Shown: piece by piece, positions 5,138 through 63,618 of the stretch | Layout: each line of letters starts with the position of its first letter | Numbering within the stretch: the first letter of the stretch is position 1 | Notes under the pieces: model-generated | Database searches by the model: none | What the model was told of the DNA's origin: nothing | What the model saw: only the letters and a program-made list of their open reading frames with translations | Translations under genes and position numbers: made by a program | Origin: Candidatus Poribacteria bacterium | GTDB lineage: Bacteria > Poribacteria > WGA-4E > WGA-3G | NCBI GenBank assembly: GCA_965261115.1 | Contig: OZ253447.1 | Location: 2,887,625 to 2,951,624 of the forward strand | Length of the DNA: 64,000 bases | Direction of reading: 5' to 3'

Positions 5138-6262
5138 GTGAAATTCAGAGGACATCTACTTGACGATACCGTCAAAAGTGCTTACGGATTGGGGGTTGCT
5201 GATATAAACGGTGATGGCCAACTCGACATCATCGCAGGCTCCATAGGCGAACCCATCATCGCTTGGTACGAAGCACCTCACTGGAAAAGACACCCCGTAA
5301 CCGATCAGGACGGCGGGCACATTACCATTGCCCCTTATGATCTGACCGGCAATGGTACGCCTGATCTCATCGTCGGGAGCGGTTTTAACCGTGGTGTAAA
5401 CGCTGCTGGTGGTTATCTCCACTGGCTTGAAGCACCAACACAAGACGGACAGAACTGGAAAAGCCACCACATCGCTGACGTTCCCTTTATCCACCGCATT
5501 GCACTCGCAAATTTGTCGGAAAGCGGATCAAGCGCAGTGCCTTTCCTCATCGTCGCCTCCATCCGCGGTGAAGATGGCAAACCCGGCGAATGGCACAGTC
5601 CAGGCTCCCTCTGGTGCTATGAACTATCAGATACCCCGCGAGACACAACCTCTTGGCAATCTCACCTCCTTGACGACTCCCTCCACATCAACCACGGTTT
5701 GAGCATCAACGATGTTGACCAAGATGGACGCGATGACGTGCTGATTAGCTGCACTGAAGGCTTGATCTGGTACGAAGCTCCTGTTAACCCAATGACAGAC
5801 GACTGGGGCAAATGGATTATCAGTGATCGCGAGTGTAGCGATACCTATGCCGCAGACATTGATGGCGACGGAGTCAACGAAATCTTAGCGATTGAACCGT
5901 GGCACGGGAACAATCTCGTCTGGTATAAAGCTACTGGCGATCTACGAACCGATCCCTGGGAGCGTCACCTCATTGATGACACACTCAACCGTGGACACTC
6001 ACTCGCCGCCGTTGACGTTGATGGCGACGGTGTGTTAGAGGTGATCTGTGGCTACAACGGCGAAGGCACAAGCCTCCACCTCTACCGTCCAGAGAATCTC
6101 GCACAAAACCGCTGGAGCAAAGAGACGATCGACAACGGCACCTTAGGCGTTGGACAGATGCACGTCTTGGACATGAACGGAAACGGTAGATTGGACATCG
6201 TCGCCAGCGGTCTCAGCACCGGCAATGTGAAATGGTATGAAAACCAGCCTGGTAAGAACTAA
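5138..6262 (+). CDS. FG-GAP/VCBS repeat beta-propeller protein.
   Basis: At least five repeats of DxDGDGxxD(I/V) type (DINGDGQLDII, DVDQDGRDDVLI, DIDGDGVNEIL, DVDGDGVLEVI, DMNGNGRLDIV). Start proposed at GTG 5138, preceded by GAGGAGG. The listed ORF starts at GTG 5111. Confidence 0.7.
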   Translation: MKFRGHLLDDTVKSAYGLGVADINGDGQLDIIAGSIGEPIIAWYEAPHWKRHPVTDQDGGHITIAPYDLTGNGTPDLIVGSGFNRGVNAAGGYLHWLEAPTQDGQNWKSHHIADVPFIHRIALANLSESGSSAVPFLIVASIRGEDGKPGEWHSPGSLWCYELSDTPRDTTSWQSHLLDDSLHINHGLSINDVDQDGRDDVLISCTEGLIWYEAPVNPMTDDWGKWIISDRECSDTYAADIDGDGVNEILAIEPWHGNNLVWYKATGDLRTDPWERHLIDDTLNRGHSLAAVDVDGDGVLEVICGYNGEGTSLHLYRPENLAQNRWSKETIDNGTLGVGQMHVLDMNGNGRLDIVASGLSTGNVKWYENQPGKN

Positions 6263-23061: not shown

Positions 23062-23200
23062 GATAACTTACACATTCCTCTTAAAGTCCCCCTGATAAGG
23101 GGGATTTAGGGGGTGTTTTTGATAGGGTGTTTCTTAAAAATACCGAAACTGCTACTTTTGCGTAAAAGTGTCGCATATTTACTCAATTTGCGTAAGTCTT
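23062..23200. repeat. Family-A MITE-like repeat (copy 3). Left TIR degenerate (AACTTACACATT), right TIR GCGTAAGTCTT. Contains GTCCCCCTGATAAGGGGGATTTAGGGGG.
   Basis: Shared blocks with 44631 and 51643 copies. Confidence 0.65.
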
Positions 23201-27496: not shown

Positions 27497-27537
27497 CCCC
27501 AGGCCCGGTAGGTGCGGTTTGAAACCGCACCGGGCTT
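27497..27537. repeat. Family-B REP-like palindrome CCCGGTAGGTGCGGTTTGAAACCGCACCGGGC.
   Basis: Perfect hairpin. Related copies at 52436-52573, 55541-55660 and 41745-41790. Confidence 0.7.
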
Positions 27538-27606
27538 GAGAAAGAAGATTCAAAAACTTAGAAAATCCGATGATTTATCTAAAACTAAATCACCCTGATC
27601 TCGTAC

Positions 27607-41711: not shown

Positions 41712-41860
41712 TGAACCATAAGCGTCAATTTAAAAAAAATAACCGCTTCGGTCCCAGACCCGGTAGGTTCGGTTTCCTAACCGAACCGGAACTTAAGCAC
41801 AAACTTTTCATAACCCAAAAATCCTCTTGAGTTCCGTAGGAACGGTATGTTTATAGAATA
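41712..41860. repeat. Family-B/C REP-like composite repeat (ACCATAAGCGTCAATTTAA ... CCCGGTAGGTTCGGTTTCCTAACCGAACCGG ... GTTCCGTAGGAACGGTATGTTTATAG).
   Basis: Near-collinear with 55570-55705. Hairpins carry compensatory changes. Confidence 0.65.
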
Positions 41861-41882
41861 AAAATGCGTAAGGAACTATCCC

Positions 41883-43514
41883 ATGCAATATATCAAAGAC
41901 ACATTCCTAATCATTCTAATCGGCATTTTAATGACGCCGACCATATTATTCGCAACACCCCACGAACCCTCTCCTGCGGGTGGCGGTTGGCTTGAACTAA
42001 ATCCTAAACTCGGGCAAGTCCAAACGGATGCACCTTGGTTGCCCGAGCTTACCGGGACGCTCACGATTGAAGCGTGGATCTACGTAGACGAGACGTTACC
42101 CAAGCAAGTCACCTTTTCTCTCGTCGGTCAAACAGACCGATTCAGCTGCTTCATGACTGGAATTCCTGCAGACGAAAATAGAGATAATGTGATGGATACT
42201 CGGATCGGTATCCTTTCCAATGGGACTAAAGACCCTTCAATGGTGACGGACACAGACCATCTACCGATTCGTCAGTGGGTGCATTATGTCGCGACAATCG
42301 ACCGCGGTGCTGCTATCGGCAGCGATGGGCTTATTTTAGAAGGTGGAAGTGATGGGAGCGAACTGCCAGTGCCAAATGAAAATCGGCTTGTGCTTGGTGG
42401 TATGCCAACTTTGACGAAACTGCCAGCACCCCTGCTGGGTGACAAAATGCGTTTCGCTTCAGGAGTCTATATTGACGAACTAAGAATCAGCGGCGTTGTC
42501 CGTTACAAAGGCAACTACGATGTGCCGACAAAGGCATTCACCGCAGATACTGATACTATAGGACTCTATCATTTCGATGAAGGCTCAAAACAACGTTATG
42601 AAGATAGCTCAAATTCCCAGATTCCCTTAATCCGCAGTGAGATAGATCCTGAGATGCTTGCGAAGATTGAGGCAGCGACAGCTTCGCCTGTGCTACCAAA
42701 AAGCGAAGAAGAGCTGCTTCAGCTGATCCGCGAAGGGATTGCCTATTACGATAGCCTGCTTGAAAGCGGACGCGTCGATTTTCTTCGCGAGACTACCAGC
42801 GTCGCCTCTACTGTGATCCCTCCTGAACTCGGACGTTTCCCCAGTGGTACTTGGAAAGGAACTTTCGAGTTTTCGGGACGCAAAATAAGGGGCATTGTGA
42901 CGCAAGATGTTATTCAGTACGAGCCTGACCGAAACATTCCAATTAAAGGCACAGAGCAGTACGCGTATGATGGCGAAACATTTGAAACACTCCGAAATAC
43001 ATCTCACCATACTTTGTTGGAACGAAGAAGCGAAGTCGTCCATGATTCATTTGATGATCCACGCTTCTGGGGATGGAATCTCAGCGGTGGGGATAGGTCT
43101 CTTATAATGATTATTGATGGACTTGAGATCGAAAGTATTAAAGAGGTGCGTTTCAATGATAGTGAAGTCTATCATATCAAAGGAGATATGTTTGGTGGTA
43201 CTATAGAATTGTGGCTGAATCCTAAAAAAAGTTACCGACCCGAACGCTTTAGGAGTTCTAATCTCATGCTTTCGATGACAAAGGATTTCAAGTTCAAAGA
43301 GGTCGCACCCGACCTCTGGTTCCCGGAATCCGCCAAGTGGATTGACACCATCGCGAAAATCAATATTAGAACCACAACCGTGCAATTCACAAACATTCGG
43401 ATTAACGAACCTATCCCTGAATCTCGGTTTTCCATTGAACCACCCCCTGGCGCAACAGTGTTCGACATGCGAACCCGAGAAAGTTTTGAAATCCCAGCGG
43501 AGAAAAGTAAATGA
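41883..43514 (+). CDS. Secreted LamG-like + LolA-like protein, paralog 3 (closest to paralog 1, short deletion near the C-terminus).
   Basis: About 80% identical to the 37610 protein. Confidence 0.6.
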   Translation: MQYIKDTFLIILIGILMTPTILFATPHEPSPAGGGWLELNPKLGQVQTDAPWLPELTGTLTIEAWIYVDETLPKQVTFSLVGQTDRFSCFMTGIPADENRDNVMDTRIGILSNGTKDPSMVTDTDHLPIRQWVHYVATIDRGAAIGSDGLILEGGSDGSELPVPNENRLVLGGMPTLTKLPAPLLGDKMRFASGVYIDELRISGVVRYKGNYDVPTKAFTADTDTIGLYHFDEGSKQRYEDSSNSQIPLIRSEIDPEMLAKIEAATASPVLPKSEEELLQLIREGIAYYDSLLESGRVDFLRETTSVASTVIPPELGRFPSGTWKGTFEFSGRKIRGIVTQDVIQYEPDRNIPIKGTEQYAYDGETFETLRNTSHHTLLERRSEVVHDSFDDPRFWGWNLSGGDRSLIMIIDGLEIESIKEVRFNDSEVYHIKGDMFGGTIELWLNPKKSYRPERFRSSNLMLSMTKDFKFKEVAPDLWFPESAKWIDTIAKINIRTTTVQFTNIRINEPIPESRFSIEPPPGATVFDMRTRESFEIPAEKSK

Positions 43515-44632: not shown

Positions 44633-44830
44633 AACTTACGCATTTCCTCTTAAAGTCCCCCTGATAAGGGGGATTTAGGGGGTTTCTTCAGAGCCATTCA
44701 ATTGTCCCATATATATTGCAAGTCCCCTGATAAGGGGACGTTTTCCTTGGGGTATTTGATAGGGTATTTCTGCGTATTTCTTCTATAGGGGGTTTCTTCA
44801 GAGCCATTCAATTGTCCCATAATTTCGATT
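44631..44830. repeat. Family-A MITE-like repeat (copy 4) with an internal duplication of GGGGTTTCTTCAGAGCCATTCAATTGTCCCATA.
   Basis: Seen directly. Contains GTCCCCCTGATAAGGGGGATTTAGGGGG. Confidence 0.65.
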
Positions 44831-51642: not shown

Positions 51643-51850
51643 GACTTAGGCATTTGCTCTTAAAGTCCCCCTGATAAGGGGGATTTAGGGGGTTGTGGTA
51701 TTTATTTGAAAAGCGTACCGAACAGGACTTACGCATTAAAGTCCCCCTGATAAGGGGATTTAGGAGTGTTTTTGCTGGAGGTGTTTTGCTTGGGTATTTC
51801 TGCGGATTTCTTAAAAATACCGAAATTACTGCTTTTTGCGTAAGTCCTAC
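51643..51850. repeat. Family-A MITE-like repeat (copy 5, composite) bounded by AGGACTTAGGCA / TGCGTAAGTCCT.
   Basis: Two GTCCCCCTGATAAGGGG cores. TIRs seen directly. Confidence 0.65.
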
Positions 51851-52435: not shown

Positions 52436-52573
52436 GGCGGGGTTTGCTGAGGTTTAATAAAATAAATCGGTAATCCCCAGGCCCGGTAGGTGCGGTTTGC
52501 TGAGGTTTAATAAAATAAATCGGTAATCCCCAGGCCCGGTAGGTGCGGTTTGGAACCGCACCGGGTCTTAGGC
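52436..52573. repeat. Tandem pair of a 58-bp unit ending in the family-B palindrome CCCGGTAGGTGCGGTTTG(G)AACCGCACCGGG.
   Basis: Direct duplication of GGTTTGCTGAGGTTTAATAAAATAAATCGGTAATCCCCAGGCCCGGTAGGTGCGGTTTG. Confidence 0.7.
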
Positions 52574-55540: not shown

Positions 55541-55900
55541 ACAGATCCAGTAGGTGCGGTTTTGCTGCGTACCATAAGTGTCAATTTAAGAAAATAATAA
55601 CCTTGTTTTCCCAGGCCCGGTAGGTTCGGTTTCCTAACCGAACCGGATACGACGCGGAAACCTTGAAGATTTCAAAAAACCTCTTCAGTCCCGTAGGGGA
55701 CGGTATGTTTATAGCAGCGTTTTCAAGCAAAAACCCAAGCCCCGTAGGGGCGGCATGTTTATATCGGTGTTCCAAAATACTGTGAAACAATCTCTAAATT
55801 GACACCTATGGTGCGGTTTTGCTGCGTACTCGCCTGCCCCCTTGATAAGGGTGTGTTTTTGCTTGGGTATTTATGCGTATTCTTGTCACTCGCGATGCTT
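55541..55900. repeat. Composite repeat region: family-B/C hairpins (CAGTAGGTGCGGTTTTGCTGCGTAC twice, CCCGGTAGGTTCGGTTTCCTAACCGAACCGG, GTCCCGTAGGGGAC, GCCCCGTAGGGGC) plus a partial family-A tail (55836-55900).
   Basis: Collinear with 41712-41860 and 52436-52573 elements. Confidence 0.6.
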
Positions 55901-56018: not shown

Positions 56019-58466
56019 ATGGCAATAAAGAAATCACAACTCTACGCGTCGCTCTGGCAAAGCTGCGACGAACTCCGCGGCGGGATGGATGCATCACAAT
56101 ACAAAGACTATATCCTGACGCTGCTCTTCATGAAATACGTCTCCGATAAAGCGGAAAATGATCCCTACGCACTCATCACCGTTCCAGAAGGCGGTGGCTT
56201 CTCGGATATGGTGGCACTGATCGGGAACAGAGACATCGGCGAAAAAATTAACGTCATTATCGGGGCATTCGCGAAGGCAAACGATCTCAACGGTGTTATT
56301 GATCAGGCGGACTTTGATGACAGTAGTAAACTCGGCAGCGGTAAAGAGAAGCAGGACAGGCTCTCTAAACTCGTCGCTATTTTCAACGATCTCGACCTAA
56401 GCGCGAACCGAGCCGAAGGAGACGACCTCTTAGGCGATGCGTATGAATACCTCATGCGACACTTCGCTACGGAATCAGGGAAAAGCAAGGGACAGTTCTA
56501 CACACCTGCTGAAGTCTCCCGCATCATGGCGAAGGTCATCGGCATCGGACCCGGGACGCAACAGGATCAAACCATTTACGACCCTACCTGCGGTTCCGGC
56601 TCACTCCTGCTTAGGGCAACAGACGAGGCACCGCGGATCTATGGACAGGAAAAAGACAATGCCACCCATGCCCTTGCACGGATGAACATGATCCTCCACG
56701 ATAACATCACCGCTGACCTACGCCACGGCAACACACTCGCCGCACCCGATTTCACTGACGATGATCGCTTGAAAACCTTCGATTTTGCTGTCGCCAATCC
56801 ACCTTTCTCAGACAAAGCATGGACCAACGGGATCATCCCTGAAAATGATCCTTACAGCCGTTTTGAATACGGTGTCCCACCCGCCAAAAATGGCGATTAC
56901 GCCTTCCTGCTCCATTTCATTGCCTCGCTCAAGAGTAAAGGTAAAGGCGCGATTATTCTGCCGCACGGTGTCCTGTTCCGCGGCAATAGGGAAGCGGACA
57001 TCCGCACTGAACTCATCCGCCACCGCTATATTAAAGGCATCATCGGTCTGCCCGCAAACCTGTTCTACGGGACGGGGATCCCAGCGTGTATCCTCGTTAT
57101 CGACAAAGAGAACGCACACGTCCGAAACGGTATCTTTATGATTGACGCGAGCAACGGGTTCATCAAGGATGGAAACAAGAACCGGCTCCGCGCCCAAGAC
57201 ATCCACAAAATCGTTGTTGTCTTCAATGAACAGAGGGAATTACCGCGCTACTCACGTATGGTGCCAATTTCTGAAATCGCTGACCCCGCAAACGCCTATA
57301 ACCTCAATATCCCGCGCTATATCGATACCAGTGAACCCGAAGATTTACACGACCTCGGCGCACACCTCAACGGCGGCATCCCTGACACTGATATTGATGC
57401 ACTCAACGACTATTGGACGGTCTTCCCGACACTCCGTAATGCTCTATTTGAAGCTAACGGTAGACCGGGATACAGCGACCCGCTCGTGGAAACGCAACAC
57501 ATAAAAACGACAATCCTCACGCATCCGGAATTCAACGCTTATCAACAGCAGGTCTCGACAGTTTTTCACGGATGGCGCGAGACACACGAACAACGCCTGC
57601 TTGCTATTGATGTCGGCACGCCGCCGAGGGAAATCATCTGGACGTTATCGGACGATCTCCTCTCCCGTTTCAACGACCTGCAACTCTTGGATCGGTATGA
57701 TGTCTATCAGAAACTAATGGATTATTGGGACGAGGTGATGCAGGACGATGCCTATCTCATCGCGTCGGACGGGTGGGTCAAAGCCGCAAAACCTCGTGAA
57801 GTCATCCAAAGCAAACAGGTTAAAGAGACTCCCGATCTCGTCATCAAAAAGCGTAAATACAAGATGGACCTGATTCCACCGGCGTTGATCGTTGCACGCT
57901 ATTTCACCGATGAACAAGAAATTATCGAGATGTTGGCGGCACAGCAAGCGACCGCTGCGAGTGCGTTAGAAGAATACATTGAGGAACACACCGGTGAAGA
58001 CGGATTGCTCGCCGATGCTGTCAACGACAGTGGCAATATTACTGCCAGCAGTGTCAAGGAACGCCTCAAGGCACTTGCTCCCGATTTGACAACGCTTCAC
58101 GAGACACAGGACAACGATGACGAACAGAATGCGCTTGAACACTGCCTCTCCTTGCTTGATGCAAAGTCGAAAGCAGAGAAAGCCGTGAAGGATGTCCAAC
58201 TCGCGCTTGATGAACAGGTATTGGCGCATTATGCAACGCTCACCGAGACCGAAATCAAGGTGCTTGTGGTTGAAGATAAATGGTTCGCCAGTATTCACGC
58301 AGCGATTGACGGTGAAGTTCAGCGTTTGACGCAGGCACTCGCGGCGCGCGTTCAGGAATTGGAGGAACGCTATGCACAGCCATTATCAGAGTTAGCACAA
58401 GAGGTCGAGACGTTTAGTGCAAAGGTAGAAGCGCATCTGAGGAGAATGGGGGTTGATTCGGTATGA
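56019..58466 (+). CDS. hsdM: Type I restriction-modification system DNA methyltransferase subunit (N6-adenine), long form with a coiled-coil C-terminal extension.
   Basis: HsdM_N helical domain (YKDYILTLLFMKYVSDK). SAM motif I (DPTCGSGSLL). Motif IV ANPPFS. 815 aa. Confidence 0.88.
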   Translation: MAIKKSQLYASLWQSCDELRGGMDASQYKDYILTLLFMKYVSDKAENDPYALITVPEGGGFSDMVALIGNRDIGEKINVIIGAFAKANDLNGVIDQADFDDSSKLGSGKEKQDRLSKLVAIFNDLDLSANRAEGDDLLGDAYEYLMRHFATESGKSKGQFYTPAEVSRIMAKVIGIGPGTQQDQTIYDPTCGSGSLLLRATDEAPRIYGQEKDNATHALARMNMILHDNITADLRHGNTLAAPDFTDDDRLKTFDFAVANPPFSDKAWTNGIIPENDPYSRFEYGVPPAKNGDYAFLLHFIASLKSKGKGAIILPHGVLFRGNREADIRTELIRHRYIKGIIGLPANLFYGTGIPACILVIDKENAHVRNGIFMIDASNGFIKDGNKNRLRAQDIHKIVVVFNEQRELPRYSRMVPISEIADPANAYNLNIPRYIDTSEPEDLHDLGAHLNGGIPDTDIDALNDYWTVFPTLRNALFEANGRPGYSDPLVETQHIKTTILTHPEFNAYQQQVSTVFHGWRETHEQRLLAIDVGTPPREIIWTLSDDLLSRFNDLQLLDRYDVYQKLMDYWDEVMQDDAYLIASDGWVKAAKPREVIQSKQVKETPDLVIKKRKYKMDLIPPALIVARYFTDEQEIIEMLAAQQATAASALEEYIEEHTGEDGLLADAVNDSGNITASSVKERLKALAPDLTTLHETQDNDDEQNALEHCLSLLDAKSKAEKAVKDVQLALDEQVLAHYATLTETEIKVLVVEDKWFASIHAAIDGEVQRLTQALAARVQELEERYAQPLSELAQEVETFSAKVEAHLRRMGVDSV

Positions 58467-59692
58467 GTCAGAGGATGACAGGAGACACTTTTCCATCTGA
58501 GTGGCACTTGATGCAACTTGGGGATTTATTTGAGGCAAAGGCTGGCGGTGATATTGTTCAATCAAGATCTAATGATGTGCAAGATGATTGCTATCCATAT
58601 CCAATCTATGCGAACGGTCTTGAACAGCAAGGTCTTTATGGCTTCAGCAACTATGCCGAGGAACCAGCTGACTCAATCACTGTTACTGCAAGAGGGACTT
58701 TAGGAAAAGCTTTCTATAGGAACACCCCTTTTGTCGCTATTGGCAGACTTTTAGTCTTGAAGCCTAAGGTTTCACTTGACGCGCGCTTTTTTTGCGAGTA
58801 TATCAATTATGGTATCCACTTTGCTGTTGAGAGTACAGGAGTTCCTCAATTGACGGCTCCGCAAATCTCTCGCTATTGGCTGCCTGTTCCCACTGTACCA
58901 GAACAACGTGCCATTGCCGAGGCATTGTCAGATGTGGATGGGTTGCTCAACGCGTTGGAGGCACTCATCGCTAAAAAGCGAGCCATCAAGCAGGCCACGA
59001 TGCAGCAACTGCTAACCGGTAAAACGCGCCTGCCGGGGTTTAGCAGAACATGGGAAAAAACAGAGATGGGACACATTGGTTCAATCTACGGTGGCTTGTC
59101 TGGGAAAAGTAAAGTTGATTTTGAAGGTGGTAATGCACGTTATGTGACATTTCTGGGTGTTTTGGAGAATGTTATCCTTAATATACGCCACACCGAGCGT
59201 GTTCATGTTGGTCCTGGGGAATCACAGAATAGTGTTATGGAAGGCGATTTATTATTCAACGCTTCATCCGAAACTCCGGGGGATCTCGCAATAGGGGCAG
59301 TCATGGGGGAACAATTAGATAACTTGTATCTCAACAGTTTCTGTTTTGGCTTTCGAGTTCACGATGAAAATAAATATATGCCATTGTTCTTGGCTTATTT
59401 TTTCAGAGGATCTGTCGGACGTTCTATTATGAATGCACTTGCACAAGGTGCTACGCGATACAATGTGTCAAAGAGTCAATTTCTCTCACTTGAATTATCA
59501 ATTCCACCTTGTGACGAACAACACGCTATCGTCTCCGTTCTCTCTGATATGGATGCCGAGATTGCCGCATTGGAGCAGCGTCGAGACAAAACTCGCGCCA
59601 TCAAACAGGGGATGATGCAGCAGCTCCTCACGGGACGCGTGCGGTTGTCTGAATCGCGGATTATCGCGGATGACACGGATAACGCGGATTAG
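58463..59692 (+). CDS. hsdS: Type I R-M specificity subunit with two target-recognition domains.
   Basis: Central and distal conserved helices (LPVPTVPEQRAIAEALSDVDGLLNALE... and IPPCDEQHAIVSVLSDMDAEIAALEQRR...). Overlaps hsdM by 4 nt. Confidence 0.85.
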   Translation: MSQRMTGDTFPSEWHLMQLGDLFEAKAGGDIVQSRSNDVQDDCYPYPIYANGLEQQGLYGFSNYAEEPADSITVTARGTLGKAFYRNTPFVAIGRLLVLKPKVSLDARFFCEYINYGIHFAVESTGVPQLTAPQISRYWLPVPTVPEQRAIAEALSDVDGLLNALEALIAKKRAIKQATMQQLLTGKTRLPGFSRTWEKTEMGHIGSIYGGLSGKSKVDFEGGNARYVTFLGVLENVILNIRHTERVHVGPGESQNSVMEGDLLFNASSETPGDLAIGAVMGEQLDNLYLNSFCFGFRVHDENKYMPLFLAYFFRGSVGRSIMNALAQGATRYNVSKSQFLSLELSIPPCDEQHAIVSVLSDMDAEIAALEQRRDKTRAIKQGMMQQLLTGRVRLSESRIIADDTDNAD

Positions 59693-59727
59693 GGAGACTT
59701 GGTGTTTGTCGCGTTTTTTATCTGACA

Positions 59728-59870
59728 TTCTATAGACATAGCACTCCACTGGAGTGCAAGAAGGTCCGCAACCTATCTCTATAGACATATCACGCCTCTG
59801 GCGTGAGGAAATATCCACAACCTGTTTCTATAAACATATCACGCCTCTGGCGTGAGGAAGGGAAACCTCT
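59728..59870. repeat. Three short hairpin modules CTATAGACATA-[CACNCCNCTGGNGTG]-AGGAA spaced about 50 bp apart.
   Basis: CACTCCACTGGAGTG, CACGCCTCTGGCGTG x2, each preceded by TCTATA(G/A)ACATA. Confidence 0.6.
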
Positions 59871-59904
59871 GAACGGACATGTAACCTATAGGCGCGAAGT
59901 GTTG

Positions 59905-60640
59905 AAAATGGATGTTTGAAAATTGATCTCTTTGCTCCAGCGGAGCAATATGTCTATAGAATATTCATGCCCAACCGGCTGCACTCCAGCGGAGTGCTAT
60001 GTCAATTGCACGAAAATATGGATACATCACGTATCTGGCGTGAGGAGAATCGCCGAATATTGAAAATGGATATTGGAAATCAATCTCTTTGCTCCAGCGG
60101 AGCAATATGTCTATAGAATATTCATGCCCAACCGGCTGCACTCCAGCGGAGTGCTATGTCAATTGCACGAAAATATGGATACATCACGTATCTGGCGTGA
60201 GGAGAATCGCCGAATATTGAAAATGGATATTGGAAATCAATCTCTTTGCTCCAGCGGAGCAATATGTCTATAGAATATTCATGCCCAACCGGCTGCACTC
60301 CAGCGGAGTGCTATGTCAATTGCACGAAAATATGGATACATCACGTATCTGGCGTGAGGAGAATCGCCGAATATTGAAAATGGATATTGGAAATCAATCT
60401 CTTTGCTCCAGCGGAGCAATATGTCTATAGAATATTCATGCCCAACCGGCTGCACTCCAGCGGAGTGCTATGTCAATTGCACGAAAATATGGATACATCA
60501 CGTATCTGGCGTGAGGAGAATCGCCGAATATTGAAAATGGATATTGGAAATCAATCTCTTTGCTCCAGCGGAGCAATATGTCTATAGAAAGCGGATTGCC
60601 AACGGGCTGCACTCCAGCGGAGTGCTATGTACCTAAACTT
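59905..60640. repeat. Tandem array of about 4.4 copies of a 157-bp unit. Each unit carries three hairpin modules (TTGCTCCAGCGGAGCAA, GCACTCCAGCGGAGTGC, CACGTATCTGGCGTG) flanked by (TCTATAGACATA/TATGTCTATAGA)-type arms.
   Basis: Four identical 66-aa phantom ORFs at a 157-nt offset reveal perfect tandem copies. A final hairpin GCACTCCAGCGGAGTGC at 60618-60634 lies about 90 bp upstream of tnpA. Confidence 0.8.
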
Positions 60641-60642
60641 TT

Positions 60643-60672
60643 TTGACACACAATAGGCGATGCAGATATAAT
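60643..60672 (+). promoter_or_regulatory. Consensus sigma70 promoter TTGACA-18-TATAAT driving the tnpA operon.
   Basis: Perfect -35 and -10 hexamers read directly. Confidence 0.6.
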
Positions 60673-60725
60673 ATGCGGAACTTACCGCGATAAATATAAC
60701 AAACCTTGGAGATCTATAAAAACCT

Positions 60726-61205
60726 ATGGCAGATACTTATACCCAACTCTATGTGCATATTGTGTTTTCTGTGAAAGGTAGACACGCGCTTATCCCCAAA
60801 GAGCACAAGTCGGAGCTCCACAAATACATCACCGGCATCATCACCAACAAAGAACAAAAATTGATTCAAATCAATTCAATGCCAGATCATATCCATATCT
60901 TAATCGGGATGACACCGAATGTCACGTTGTCTGGTTTAGTGAAAGACATCAAAGTAAATTCGACGCGCTTTATCAATCAGAAGCGTTGGACAGTGGGACA
61001 ATTTTCGTGGCAAACAGGTTACGGGGCGTTCAGTTATTCACATTCTCAGATCCCCAAGATCGCTACATATATTGAAAATCAGGAGATCCATCATTCGGAA
61101 CAGACATTCCGAGATGAGTATCTTGCGTTTTTGGAGCATTATGAGGTTACGTATGATTTGAAGTATGTTTTTGACTCGGTCGTAGATACCGCTTCTGAGG
61201 AATAA
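60726..61205 (+). CDS. tnpA: IS200/IS605-family Y1 HUH transposase (TnpA). Possibly REP-associated (RAYT-like) or domesticated.
   Basis: LYVHIVFSVKGRH (like IS200 HIVFAPKYRR). HUH motif DHIHILIGMTPNVTLSGLVKDIKVNSTRF. Catalytic Tyr in WQTGYGAFS. 159 aa. No tnpB adjacent. Confidence 0.8.
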   Translation: MADTYTQLYVHIVFSVKGRHALIPKEHKSELHKYITGIITNKEQKLIQINSMPDHIHILIGMTPNVTLSGLVKDIKVNSTRFINQKRWTVGQFSWQTGYGAFSYSHSQIPKIATYIENQEIHHSEQTFRDEYLAFLEHYEVTYDLKYVFDSVVDTASEE

Positions 61206-61240
61206 CCTACAGCACACGATTTTTTGTGGAGGGCTAAGCA

Positions 61241-62029
61241 ATGTCAATAAAATCTATAGAACAAGACTTTATTGATAAAGTCTCGGCAAAAGTTCGGGTT
61301 TTACCTGATGGCAGAGACCGTTTTCGCGTGTTTACCCCTTTCCGGTTTGACGACGGTGACCACATAGTTATTGTTCTGAAAAAAGAACACGCAGGTTGGG
61401 TGCTCTCGGACGAAGGGCATACCTATATGCACCTCACCTATGATATAAGCGAAAAGAAATTATTTAGCGGGACGCGCCATCAAATTATTTCAAATGCCCT
61501 GTCTACGTTTAAAGTTGAAGATCGTTTTGGAGAATTAATTTTTAAGGTTCAAGAGACGCGTTTTGGTGACGCGTTATACGCCTTTGCCCAAGCACTTGTG
61601 AAGATGGGTGACGTGTTATGCTTGTCAAAAGAACAGACACAATCGACATTTATGACAGATTTTGAAGCACTGTTCCATGAAGTTGTTCCTGAAGCGGACA
61701 GGACCTTCGGTTGGTACGATCCAGAGCGAGATCAAGCGAAAAAATATACAGTTGATTGTCGAATCAATGGAATGCCTGAACCGTTTTTTGTATACGCCCT
61801 TGCCAATAACGATAGAATCCGAGATGCTACAATCAAAGTACAAAAAGTGATACAATGGGGCATTCCATTTCGTCCTTTGGGAATTTTCCAAGATAGAGAA
61901 GCTGCCAATGGTCAGGTGGTTGCTCGTTTTGATGATGTATGTCCTGTGCAATTTTCCAATCTTGAAGTAAATCGGCAAGAAATCGTAGATTATCTTGGTG
62001 AGAATATTCAAGGAGTACTTAGGCAATAG
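61241..62029 (+). CDS. Hypothetical protein (262 aa) in an operon with tnpA and the ATPase.
   Basis: 35-bp gap after tnpA with GGAGGG RBS. No recognisable motifs. Confidence 0.45.
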   Translation: MSIKSIEQDFIDKVSAKVRVLPDGRDRFRVFTPFRFDDGDHIVIVLKKEHAGWVLSDEGHTYMHLTYDISEKKLFSGTRHQIISNALSTFKVEDRFGELIFKVQETRFGDALYAFAQALVKMGDVLCLSKEQTQSTFMTDFEALFHEVVPEADRTFGWYDPERDQAKKYTVDCRINGMPEPFFVYALANNDRIRDATIKVQKVIQWGIPFRPLGIFQDREAANGQVVARFDDVCPVQFSNLEVNRQEIVDYLGENIQGVLRQ

Positions 62030-62058
62030 TAAGGTTAAGAAACTGGAGGTAGCCATTC

Positions 62059-63618
62059 ATGCTTGAAAGACGCTTAGAAGGACTCTGGAGAGACTTGCAA
62101 GGCAAAAAACCACACCTGCCGCATTTCCTATCGGAAATCCGCTTAGACGGTATCCGTGGATTTAATAATCTACGGGTCGTATTCGACTATCCAGTGAGCG
62201 TCATCGCAGGGGGGAATACCACTGGTAAATCAACCGTGCTTTTTGCTGCGGCATGCGCCTATAAAGTGCCGAAAGCAGGTGTTAGGGATTATGTGCCATC
62301 CACACTGTTTCCTGACTACCGTCCAAAACTCGAAGGACGGGAGGATGTGCGCCAAGAGGTTACAATAGAGTTCAATTACCTGACGCTTGACGGACCGCTT
62401 TCTATGCGTTGGCGACGCGGTAAAGGTTGGAATCGCAGTTTCTTGGGCCGTAAAAATGCCAGTCAGCCGGAGCGACAACTCTACCTTAGAACACTAAGCA
62501 ATCTGAGCAACCCATCTGAAGTTCGCAGTGTTCTTAATATGTCACGCTTGAAATCTCAACCGGAAGAAACACCGCTGACAGCCGCACAGATTGAGTTTGC
62601 ACATCAGATGCTTCCCTTTAGGTATTCGGAGGTGGTCGATCTATCCGACGGCAAAAAGAATCTTCTCTTTGCATCACAAGAAGGCGGTGCTGCTTACTCT
62701 GAATTACACATGGCTGCAGGGGAACGCGCGATCCTTCGGCTGTCACAAGAAATCACACAACTTAATGGAGCACTCGTTCTAATTGATGAAGTAGAAGCAG
62801 GACTACATCCTTGGGTACAGCAACTCCTTATGTTGCATTTACAGCAATTAGCACTCCGTAACGATCTGCAGATTATTGTAACATCTCACAGTCCAGTCGT
62901 TCTCGACTCCGTTCCACTCAACGGCAGGATTTTTCTTGACCGAGACGACGCGTCAGGCGAGGTTGTTGTGCGCCCAGCATATCGTGACTTAATTCAGAAC
63001 GCGCTCTATGGACGTTCCAATGAAGCACTCAAACTGCTCTGTGAAGACGAGATTGCCGAAAGTATTTTGGAAGGTGTCCTTGATTACCTGCTGCCCCAAG
63101 AGAGAATCAAGTGGGAATCGGTTCATATTGGTCGCGACACGGGCGCGGACGAGTTCCCGATGCACGCCCGTTCTTTATCAAAATTCGGTCAACTTCAAGA
63201 TACCGTCTTCATTCTTGATGGGGACCAACGCGGTGGTGAAATAGAAGGTAAAATACAGGAAGCGGCGGGGCCCGCTGTCAACATCTCAATACTGTTCCTT
63301 CCTGGCAGAGAGTCCCCGGAAAGTTGGATGTGGGACAGGATAAAAGATATCCGTTCTGACGTAGTAATTGAACAGCTGGGTATTGAACGTTCAGTTCTAA
63401 CAAATGTAATGAGCCAGTTAGATGCAACGTATAACTTGGCATCCGAGTCACTTTCAGATATTGCAAAAAACAAATTCCATAGTTTATCCGATGAGTTGCG
63501 CAGGGACACAACAGAGATATGCCGGATTGTCGCACGTCTTGAATCAGATAATAGAGATAGTGATATTCAACCCCTCGTGAGTGATTTGCGAGGTATTTTC
63601 AGGCAGTGGCGTGGGTAA
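62059..63618 (+). CDS. OLD-family-like ABC-type ATPase with a C-terminal TOPRIM-like region (possible class-1 OLD nuclease / PARIS-AriA-like).
   Basis: Walker A GGNTTGKST. Walker B/D-loop LVLIDEVEAGLHP. H-loop TSHSP. C-terminal acidic cluster LLCEDEIAESILEG followed about 85 aa later by FILDGDQRGGE, which parallels the TOPRIM E...DxD arrangement. Confidence 0.55.
   Translation: MLERRLEGLWRDLQGKKPHLPHFLSEIRLDGIRGFNNLRVVFDYPVSVIAGGNTTGKSTVLFAAACAYKVPKAGVRDYVPSTLFPDYRPKLEGREDVRQEVTIEFNYLTLDGPLSMRWRRGKGWNRSFLGRKNASQPERQLYLRTLSNLSNPSEVRSVLNMSRLKSQPEETPLTAAQIEFAHQMLPFRYSEVVDLSDGKKNLLFASQEGGAAYSELHMAAGERAILRLSQEITQLNGALVLIDEVEAGLHPWVQQLLMLHLQQLALRNDLQIIVTSHSPVVLDSVPLNGRIFLDRDDASGEVVVRPAYRDLIQNALYGRSNEALKLLCEDEIAESILEGVLDYLLPQERIKWESVHIGRDTGADEFPMHARSLSKFGQLQDTVFILDGDQRGGEIEGKIQEAAGPAVNISILFLPGRESPESWMWDRIKDIRSDVVIEQLGIERSVLTNVMSQLDATYNLASESLSDIAKNKFHSLSDELRRDTTEICRIVARLESDNRDSDIQPLVSDLRGIFRQWRG

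Follow-up and report, generated by a model that had tools for sequence, protein, structure and literature searches.

In a 64,000-nt stretch of contig OZ253447.1 from a Candidatus Poribacteria bacterium (assembly GCA_965261115.1, positions 2,887,625 to 2,951,624; hereafter the window), a dense cluster of short hairpin repeats occupies the gap between hsdS and the transposase gene tnpA. We consider it likely, with a probability of about 0.8, that this region is a REPtron-like cluster resembling bacterial interspersed mosaic elements (BIMEs): non-autonomous hairpin repeats that would be the cognate single-stranded DNA (ssDNA) substrates of the adjacent Y1 (HUH) transposase and that have been amplified locally in tandem. 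An earlier note on this DNA had proposed a relationship between repetitive extragenic palindromes (REPs) and a REP-associated tyrosine transposase (RAYT). Its idea of cognate repeats is upheld by inverted doublets at a fixed distance from tnpA at nine loci and by dispersal of the repeats, although by sequence the enzyme is not a canonical RAYT. Nor is the mobile unit a REP tagged with GTAG; it consists of two hairpins in a direct doublet whose leader is of the ACATA type. The cluster and its gene comprise the following features, scored where indicated with the covariance model R1.

59729–59855, plus strand: three forward modules with starts at 59729, 59778 and 59827 (49-nt spacing), each a leader (TCTATAGACATA or TCTATAAACATA) followed by a 17-nt 7-3-7 hairpin (GCACTCCACTGGAGTGC, then TCACGCCTCTGGCGTGA twice)
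59902–60630, no strand assigned: 157-bp tandem array, with a near-identical core at 59916–60589
59926–60009, 60083–60166, 60240–60323 and 60397–60480, minus strand: four amplified reverse doublets (R1 82.3 bits each, E = 3.7e-21)
60027, 60184, 60341 and 60498 (within 60027–60514), plus strand: four copies of the degenerate forward hairpin TCACGTATCTGGCGTGA (weak R1 matches, 15 bits)
60554–60637, minus strand: tnpA-proximal reverse doublet, modules at –166/–117 from the ATG (R1 85.6 bits, the best match in the window)
60726–61205, plus strand: tnpA, encoding a 159-aa Y1 HUH transposase (Pfam Y1_Tnp, 1.3e-28)

Tandem Repeats Finder called two tracts in this region, one at 59902–60630 (period 157, 4.6 copies, 97% matches) and one at 59729–59859 (period 49, 2.7 copies). 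In a unit-by-unit comparison, the units at 60073–60229, 60230–60386 and 60387–60543 were identical to each other at 157/157 positions, the unit at 59916–60072 carried three mismatches relative to them, and a 46-nt partial unit closed the array. Unit identity stopped at 60589, right after TATGTCTATAGA(A), giving ~4.3 near-perfect copies as assembled. The array described in the earlier note as ~4.4 identical copies is therefore present, with three full units wholly identical. Each unit contains two perfect 7-3-7 hairpins, TTGCTCC-AGC-GGAGCAA and GCACTCC-AGC-GGAGTGC, and a degenerate third one, TCACGTATCTGGCGTGA, with two mismatches relative to TCACGCCTCTGGCGTGA; three hairpins per unit had been counted correctly, and the third is imperfect.

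The modules share a simple grammar with a 49-nt phase, of which the leader takes up 12 nt (TCTATAGACATA, or a degenerate variant with ACATA at its end), the hairpin 17 nt and the linker 20 nt. With up to two mismatches allowed, TCTATAGACATA matched 16 times compared to 3.0 matches expected by chance, and GCACTCCAGCGGAGTGC matched 12 times compared to 0.15 expected. Modules 1 and 2 of the upstream trio, which had been noticed before as three looser modules, form a complete forward doublet (59729–59812, R1 82.0 bits) that folded as ssDNA into the two expected hairpins (–18.8 kcal/mol, z = –5.7). The 157-bp unit consists of one reverse doublet, which reads on the minus strand as GCAATTGACATA-GCACTCCGCTGGAGTGC, the 20-nt linker and TCTATAGACATA-TTGCTCCGCTGGAGCAA, plus what is left of a forward module: the four TCACGTATCTGGCGTGA hairpins are remnants of the forward TCACGCC-type module. 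The tnpA-proximal doublet also folded into two hairpins as ssDNA (z = –2.9). Its final hairpin ends at 60625, upstream of tnpA as the earlier note had it, at a measured distance of 100 bp from the ATG at 60726 instead of about 90 bp. A search of 58500–61500 against Rfam gave no match at E ≤ 1.

The relationship between the repeat and the gene became apparent from a comparison of nine tnpA loci: that of the window, three reached through homologues and five found by pattern scanning (L001, L002, L003, L008, L014, L017, L035 and L064 besides the window; TnpA 68–89% identical). A reverse doublet lies at approximately –168/–119 from the start codon in all nine, and a forward doublet at approximately +18/+67 past the stop codon in eight, the window being the exception. 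Thus the gene stands between two copies of one doublet in inverted orientation, an arrangement known from REPtrons, and the tnpA-proximal doublet of the window represents the left inverted end that is conserved in this cassette. The gene order hsdM-hsdS-array-tnpA is common to the window, L002, L064 and L014, and a DisA-PPIase-LAM ... YgjP-Band_7 context is common to L001, L002, L008 and L064, so that the neighbourhood is retained across genomes whose TnpA is 87–89% identical to that of the window. We looked for LAM, PPIase, DisA, YgjP, Band_7 and hsdR in the window and found none; because these wider synteny genes are absent from it, the window shares only the hsdM-hsdS-tnpA segment. The shared gene order suggests, as far as gene order can tell, that tnpA has long resided at one site instead of transposing.

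In its dispersed form the repeat is a direct doublet of 78 nt, made up of ACATA plus hairpin A, a 20-nt linker, and TCTATAGACATA plus hairpin B, both hairpins being of the 7-3-7 type. Across 98 copies of the doublet, 96.7% of the stem cells were paired, and when the partner columns were slid, pairing fell to 32–51%. Cells in which both sides had changed numbered 163, compared to 46 ± 5 in shuffled alignments, and none of 500 shuffles reached 163. Hairpin A lay outside the search pattern, and its covariation is for this reason unbiased. The stems of the doublet are maintained through compensatory changes, and their structure is under selection. The 20-nt linkers are conserved between loci as well (for example, ATATCCACAACCT occurs in both the window and L002) and are repeated identically within arrays. 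The hairpin variants follow lineage: GCGCTCC/TCGCTCC doublets stand both at tnpA and at dispersed sites where TnpA is of the L035 type (68% identical), and on OY764073.1 a TAC loop occurs at tnpA and in most of the dispersed copies listed for it. This tracking is compatible with enzyme and repeat having co-evolved, although common descent by itself could produce it too.

The earlier note had named the lack of further hairpin copies in the genome as grounds for dropping its proposal; further copies do exist, in related genomes and in the window. Scanning a genome collection with TCTATAGACATANNNCNCCNNNGGNG gave at least 120 stretches, with ~17 chance matches expected by our own estimate. Among the 120 matches listed, ~116 are from Candidatus Poribacteria metagenome-assembled genomes (MAGs), scattered along the chromosomes, and only five contain tnpA. 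The 5.24-Mb chromosome OY764073.1, also home of the tnpA locus L003, carries the repeat at no fewer than seven separate sites, and at least 4–7 sites per chromosome (lower bounds) were found in related Poribacteria. Doublets occur singly, as inverted dimers and as arrays, most of them isolated, and they avoid genes: only 1 of 125 modules lay within an open reading frame (ORF) of ≥200 aa, though such ORFs make up 72% of the bases. Viral contigs scanned with the module pattern yielded 0 matches, giving no sign of phage origin. Two degenerate dispersed copies lie in the window itself, both beside a hairpin of the GTAG-type family described below.

41823–41900, minus strand: diverged single module TCTATAAACATA-CCGTTCCTACGGAAC, between two 543-aa ORFs (R1 26.6 bits, E = 1.4e-5)
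55680–55765, minus strand: diverged doublet AAACATG-CCGCCCCTACGGGGCTT, 20-nt linker, CTATAAACATA-CCGTCCCCTACGGGAC, intergenic, upstream of hsdM (R1 39.4 bits, E = 3.4e-9)

Two observations concern the range and setting of the dispersed family. At L094 (2841–2960 of DASTQB010000296.1, a Pyrinomonadaceae MAG labelled Acidobacteria), we found a genuine doublet paired with an inverted copy, which means either that the family extends beyond Poribacteria at a near-identical leader or that the contig is mis-binned. One doublet subfamily is nested in a ~170-bp element with its own inverted termini, AAGTTGCCACCTA ... TAGTAGCAACTT (L091, L098, L109, L111, L112, L117 and others), which suggests composite or nested small mobile elements.

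Tandem amplification of the modules is concentrated at tnpA. High-identity arrays that bear modules were present at 7/9 tnpA loci compared to 3/115 dispersed loci among the matches listed (Fisher p = 5.5e-8, odds ratio 131). The arrays at other loci had units of 101–191 bp in 2.3–4.8 copies with 92–98% matches. The period differs in every array (101, 103, 109, 116, 124, 129, 134, 136, 157 and 191), and the amplifications therefore arose independently. With three identical units within 157 bp × 4.3 copies, and with linker and copy number that differ between genomes, the window array has the features of a BIME-2-type cluster. Three junctions fell at the outer edge of a leader: the array ends after TATGTCTATAGA at 60588/9; internal and terminal copies of hairpin A diverge just past TATGT; and the right-hand doublet was lost at 61229, just before the position where ACATA stands elsewhere.

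By analogy with the TnpA proteins of IS608 and ISDra2 and with E. coli TnpA-REP, such a pattern could arise as follows. TnpA would bind the hairpins in ssDNA, for example in the lagging-strand template, reading the stem shape together with the 5' leader. It would cut the leader's 5' edge or close by, form a 5'-phosphotyrosine link, and then join the strand anew, to another module that has been cut. Between equivalent direct modules, such strand transfer would add or remove whole units and could produce perfect tandem copies of the kind seen in the 157-bp array; transfer to distant sites might seed dispersed doublets and inverted dimers. If the enzyme acts preferentially in cis, arrays would accumulate beside tnpA. 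We favour strand transfer of this kind, mediated by the transposase and biased to act in cis on equivalent modules, as the probable source of the 157-bp array.

At E < 1e-10, 3027 proteins were homologous to TnpA, of which the nearest was 91% identical, and an exact look-up of the window's protein returned no record. Its HUH motif (DHIH) and the tyrosine of YIENQ align to those of ISDra2 TnpA and are invariant in the alignment of homologues. The motif residues are D54-H55-I-H57, W95-Q96 and Y115-I-E-N-Q119-E-I-H122-H123 (invariant form YIxNQExHH), and F128, E131, Y132, L136, Y143, K146 and Y147 are conserved in the C-terminal tail. The protein scored 76.4 bits with the NCBIfam IS200/IS605 equivalog model NF033573 (cut-off 55), and its best matches in the Protein Data Bank (PDB) were 2FYX and 2XM3 (E = 8e-10 to 8e-9), its relatives there being the TnpA proteins of ISDra2 and IS608. 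DH[IV]H, WQ, Y---Q--HH, a length of ~150 aa and a conserved C-terminal domain are the features listed for TnpA-Y1 subclass 1.2 (Table 1, PMC6006769), which the protein matches by motifs only. The gene is predicted to be functional, on the grounds of an uninterrupted ORF, of HUH and Tyr motifs in place and of a promoter-like sequence upstream that matches the consensus at 12/12 positions. The public calls P0029, P0031, P0040, P0048 and P0078 have N-terminal extensions of 20–45 residues with '..SAPAERYV..'; this string is the translation of the upstream hairpin module GCTCCAGCGGAGCGATATGTC, so these extensions are start-codon mis-annotations.

The likeness to the E. coli tnpA-REP REPtron (PMC3333891, PMC2817692, PMC3116915) extends over most of the arrangement. 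In both, a Y1 HUH gene is bracketed by inverted extragenic hairpin repeats; the repeats are dispersed as singles, as inverted pairs (REPIN-like) and in tandem clusters; and the stems show compensatory changes. Tandem copies are near-identical within a locus and vary between genomes in both systems, E. coli BIME-2 being conserved within a locus and varying in number between strains (PMC3333891).

Several points weigh against the REPtron-like interpretation. The enzyme is of the class 1, IS200-like type, its Y motif being Y---Q (YIENQEIHH) instead of the Y---NP of class 2; it scored 29.8 bits with the NCBIfam model REP_Tyr_transpos (NF047646), well under the cut-off of 80, and so fails the RAYT model; and the 4ER8-type sequence of the E. 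coli RAYT structure was unmatched, even at E ≤ 10, in the PDB sequence search, which returned IS200-family transposases only. Every copy of the repeat has the leader ACATA or TCTATAGACATA in place of the GT[AG]G foot tetranucleotide of REPs, and the unit is a direct doublet of short 7-3-7 hairpins in a 49-nt phase. Copy numbers seen (lower bounds of ~4–7 per genome, tens of copies at most) are far below the hundreds of classical REPs, and the remaining 63 kb of the window hold no more than two dispersed copies, both degenerate; at tnpA itself, the window carries the doublet on the upstream side alone. Binding, cleavage, the cleavage position and the part of the enzyme in amplification are all steps that we infer. 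The coincidence of junctions with leader edges would also be expected if the modules were mere units of homology, and the enrichment of arrays at tnpA could reflect denser homologous modules there, subject to slippage or to RecA-dependent unequal exchange.

The last two points belong to the strongest rival, in which the modules are REP-like and the 157-bp array came from host slippage or RecA-dependent unequal exchange without the transposase. For the amplification step, we regard host recombination or slippage as a serious alternative, if on balance an unlikely one. The array is bounded by ~45 nt of homology (module plus flank), module density, and hence homologous substrate, peaks beside tnpA, and these genomes commonly hold arrays of other, unrelated sequence in tandem as well. 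A host process does not readily account for the 130-fold enrichment of arrays at tnpA, or for the dispersed inverted dimers, which offer repeated homology and are seldom amplified; moreover, the array ends coincide with leader edges, and strand transfer by TnpA-REP can assemble tandem BIMEs in vitro (PMC3333891). That the perfect array is an assembly artefact, a collapsed or expanded repeat, would be consistent with its three 100% identical units and with the tendency of short-read assemblers to misjudge copy number. Comparable arrays with other periods, however, occur at six other, independently assembled tnpA loci, complete, chromosome-scale assemblies are among the array loci (L003, L014, L017, L035 and L064), and the first and last units differ from the internal ones as expected of a real locus, making an artefact very improbable. 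In practice, assemblies of Poribacteria from short reads will be broken up by these doublets and arrays.

An ordinary autonomous IS200-family insertion sequence, with the doublets as its ends and the dispersed copies as deletion derivatives akin to miniature inverted-repeat transposable elements, would explain why TnpA passes the IS200/IS605 equivalog model, why the nearest solved structures are those of insertion-sequence transposases, and why head-to-head doublet dimers resemble the tnpA cassette minus its gene. IS200/IS605 elements have ends with hairpins on one strand, whereas the ends of tnpA here are inverted copies. The gene is, in addition, syntenic across the genomes with 87–89% identical TnpA; the exact protein is encoded at one place on the 5.24-Mb chromosome; the 64-kb window holds one tnpA; and there is no tnpB. 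We hold this reading to be improbable. An array of guide-RNA or CRISPR type, in which 29-nt leader-hairpin repeats and 20-nt spacers are processed to small RNAs, is suggested only by the regular 49-nt spacing of a 29-nt structured element and a 20-nt segment taken as variable. The earlier note had called this resemblance superficial, and we agree, since the linkers are conserved between genomes and identical within arrays, unlike unique spacers. Most genomic copies are isolated doublets, Rfam had no match, and the neighbours are type I restriction-modification (R-M) genes, the transposase, a DUF1828 gene and an AAA ATPase gene, none of them cas-like. We rejected a CRISPR-type array on the conserved, repeated linkers and these neighbours, and consider it the least probable of all.

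The REPtron-like reading also has to be placed among the described relatives of TnpA. IS608 and ISDra2 recognise subterminal ssDNA hairpins, and where they are cleaved is set by a 5' guide beside the hairpin foot. In protein sequence and structure these are the nearest relatives; unlike in these elements, the ends here are inverted, tnpB is missing, tnpA is syntenic, and it is small repeats rather than the gene that have multiplied. Subclass 1.2 as defined by Quentin in 2018 is low-copy, unlike an insertion sequence, marked 'REP: no' and found mainly in Cyanobacteria and Bacteroidetes (PMC6006769). Our enzyme shares its motifs, its ~150-aa length and conserved C-terminal tail and, as far as the loci compared show, its low copy number and a gene that behaves unlike an insertion sequence, and departs from the description in that the members here are from Poribacteria and diverse metagenomes and have inverted leader-hairpin flanks and dispersed copies. 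The IS200 Group 3 of Bertels, Gallie and Rainey (2017) shows no duplicates or plasmid copies, its flanking 16-mers are abundant (~21 occurrences), and the authors suggest that it may be RAYT-like (PMC5581495). It is an IS200-like group, and by description it may be the same clade as the window TnpA; the paper gives no repeat sequence or architecture. TIRYTs (terminal-inverted-repeat-associated tyrosine transposases, or TIRtrons; Di Nocera 2013, PMC3733652) are mostly of subclass 2.1, with helix-turn-helix tails and a GGGGWSAS motif (PMC6006769), none of which applies to the window system.

In the literature that we searched, there was no description of an ACATA-type leader, of repeats for subclass 1.2, or of a REP/RAYT system in Poribacteria. 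The pairing of an IS200-like (subclass 1.2-type) enzyme with the ACATA-leader doublet would be a REP/RAYT-like partnership not described before for that subclass. Among domesticated bacterial transposases, REP/RAYT is the chief case of an enzyme that keeps up a population of tiny repeats, and to our knowledge nearly all that has been characterised of it concerns Proteobacteria, with class 2 enzymes and REPs that are GTAG-tagged. A class 1 IS200-like subclass described as low-copy and without REPs is now linked to a specific, different repeat, and the orphan subclass 1.2 gains a candidate DNA substrate. This suggests that Y1 enzymes that keep repeats arose more than once, or that they predate class 2.

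We extended the comparison to 80 metagenome loci with TnpA 54–66% identical to that of the window, defining a module as TAYARAYAK followed by a 6–8-bp stem. Up to 300 bp from the gene, module density was 2.34 per kb, compared to 0.036 per kb beyond 600 bp; 50/80 loci had at least one flanking module, with the downstream leader at +43 to +57. Tentatively, and at somewhat less than even odds, we propose that the IS200-like Y1 proteins with Y---Q--HH constitute a second RAYT-type lineage with its own grammar (direct 7-3-7 doublets and a CTATA[AG]ACAT-type leader) that is found widely among uncultured bacteria, Poribacteria and many lineages from sediment and soil among them, and that the arrays beside tnpA are footprints of recent strand transfer in cis, which would place the point of cleavage or joining at the 5' edge of the leader. 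The strand bound by TnpA and cleavage at the leader edge are predictions open to testing.

The genes and sequences next to the cluster are as follows.

56019–58466: hsdM
58463–59692: hsdS, intact, 409 aa (Methylase_S, 1.7e-32)
60643–60672, plus strand: candidate sigma-70-type promoter for tnpA (TTGACA, 18-nt spacer, TATAAT; 12/12 consensus match)
61206–61229, plus strand: 3' flank remnant CCTACAGCACACGATTTTTTGTGG, with homology to other tnpA loci ending at 61229

The profile matches to Methylase_S and Y1_Tnp bear out the flanking hsdS and tnpA of the earlier note. The candidate promoter sits between the final hairpin and the ATG, and the same hexamers occur in L002 at 5925–5954. In the alignment, the homology break at 61229 is the exact point where other tnpA loci have ACATA-GCACTCC; the right-hand doublet is missing from the window because homology stops there. 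Downstream of the break are the DUF1828 gene at 61241 and then the AAA ATPase gene, the latter with weak PtuA/MADS3/AbiEii-like similarity; together (61206–63618 region) they resemble a defence-type gene pair lodged in a type I R-M locus. At L037, hsdM, hsdS, a doublet and a DUF1828 gene are present without tnpA. In several relatives the hsdS genes by arrays are fragmented or in pieces (L002, 3508–4812; L014, 1637–1918; L064, 1481–2674), and at L001 and L008 the hsdM-hsdS pair is entirely absent, with just an hsdR fragment left.

The window also contains a second, canonical GTAG-type REP-like family, CCCGGTAGGTKCGGTTT..AACCGMACCGGG, in six copies compared to 0 expected by chance, all on the plus strand.

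27504–27540, plus strand: GTAG-type copy
41759–41795, plus strand: GTAG-type copy
52482–52570, plus strand: two GTAG-type copies in tandem
55546–55562, plus strand: degenerate GTAG-type copy
55616–55650, plus strand: GTAG-type copy

At 41.8 kb and 55.6 kb the distance to an ACATA-type module is 60–80 bp, and L021 and L117 show the two types adjacent in the same way. We rejected the GTAG-type hairpin as the true partner of tnpA: it occurs in 0/9 tnpA flanks, whereas ACATA-type doublets occur in all of them. This family probably belongs to a different (class 2) RAYT outside the window. A further repeat, TCCCCCTGATAAGGGGGATTTAGGGGG, a hairpin followed by a G-run and preceded by 'ctcttaaag', is present in three identical intergenic copies on the plus strand (23087–23113, 44656–44682 and 51666–51692), with a variant at 44722.

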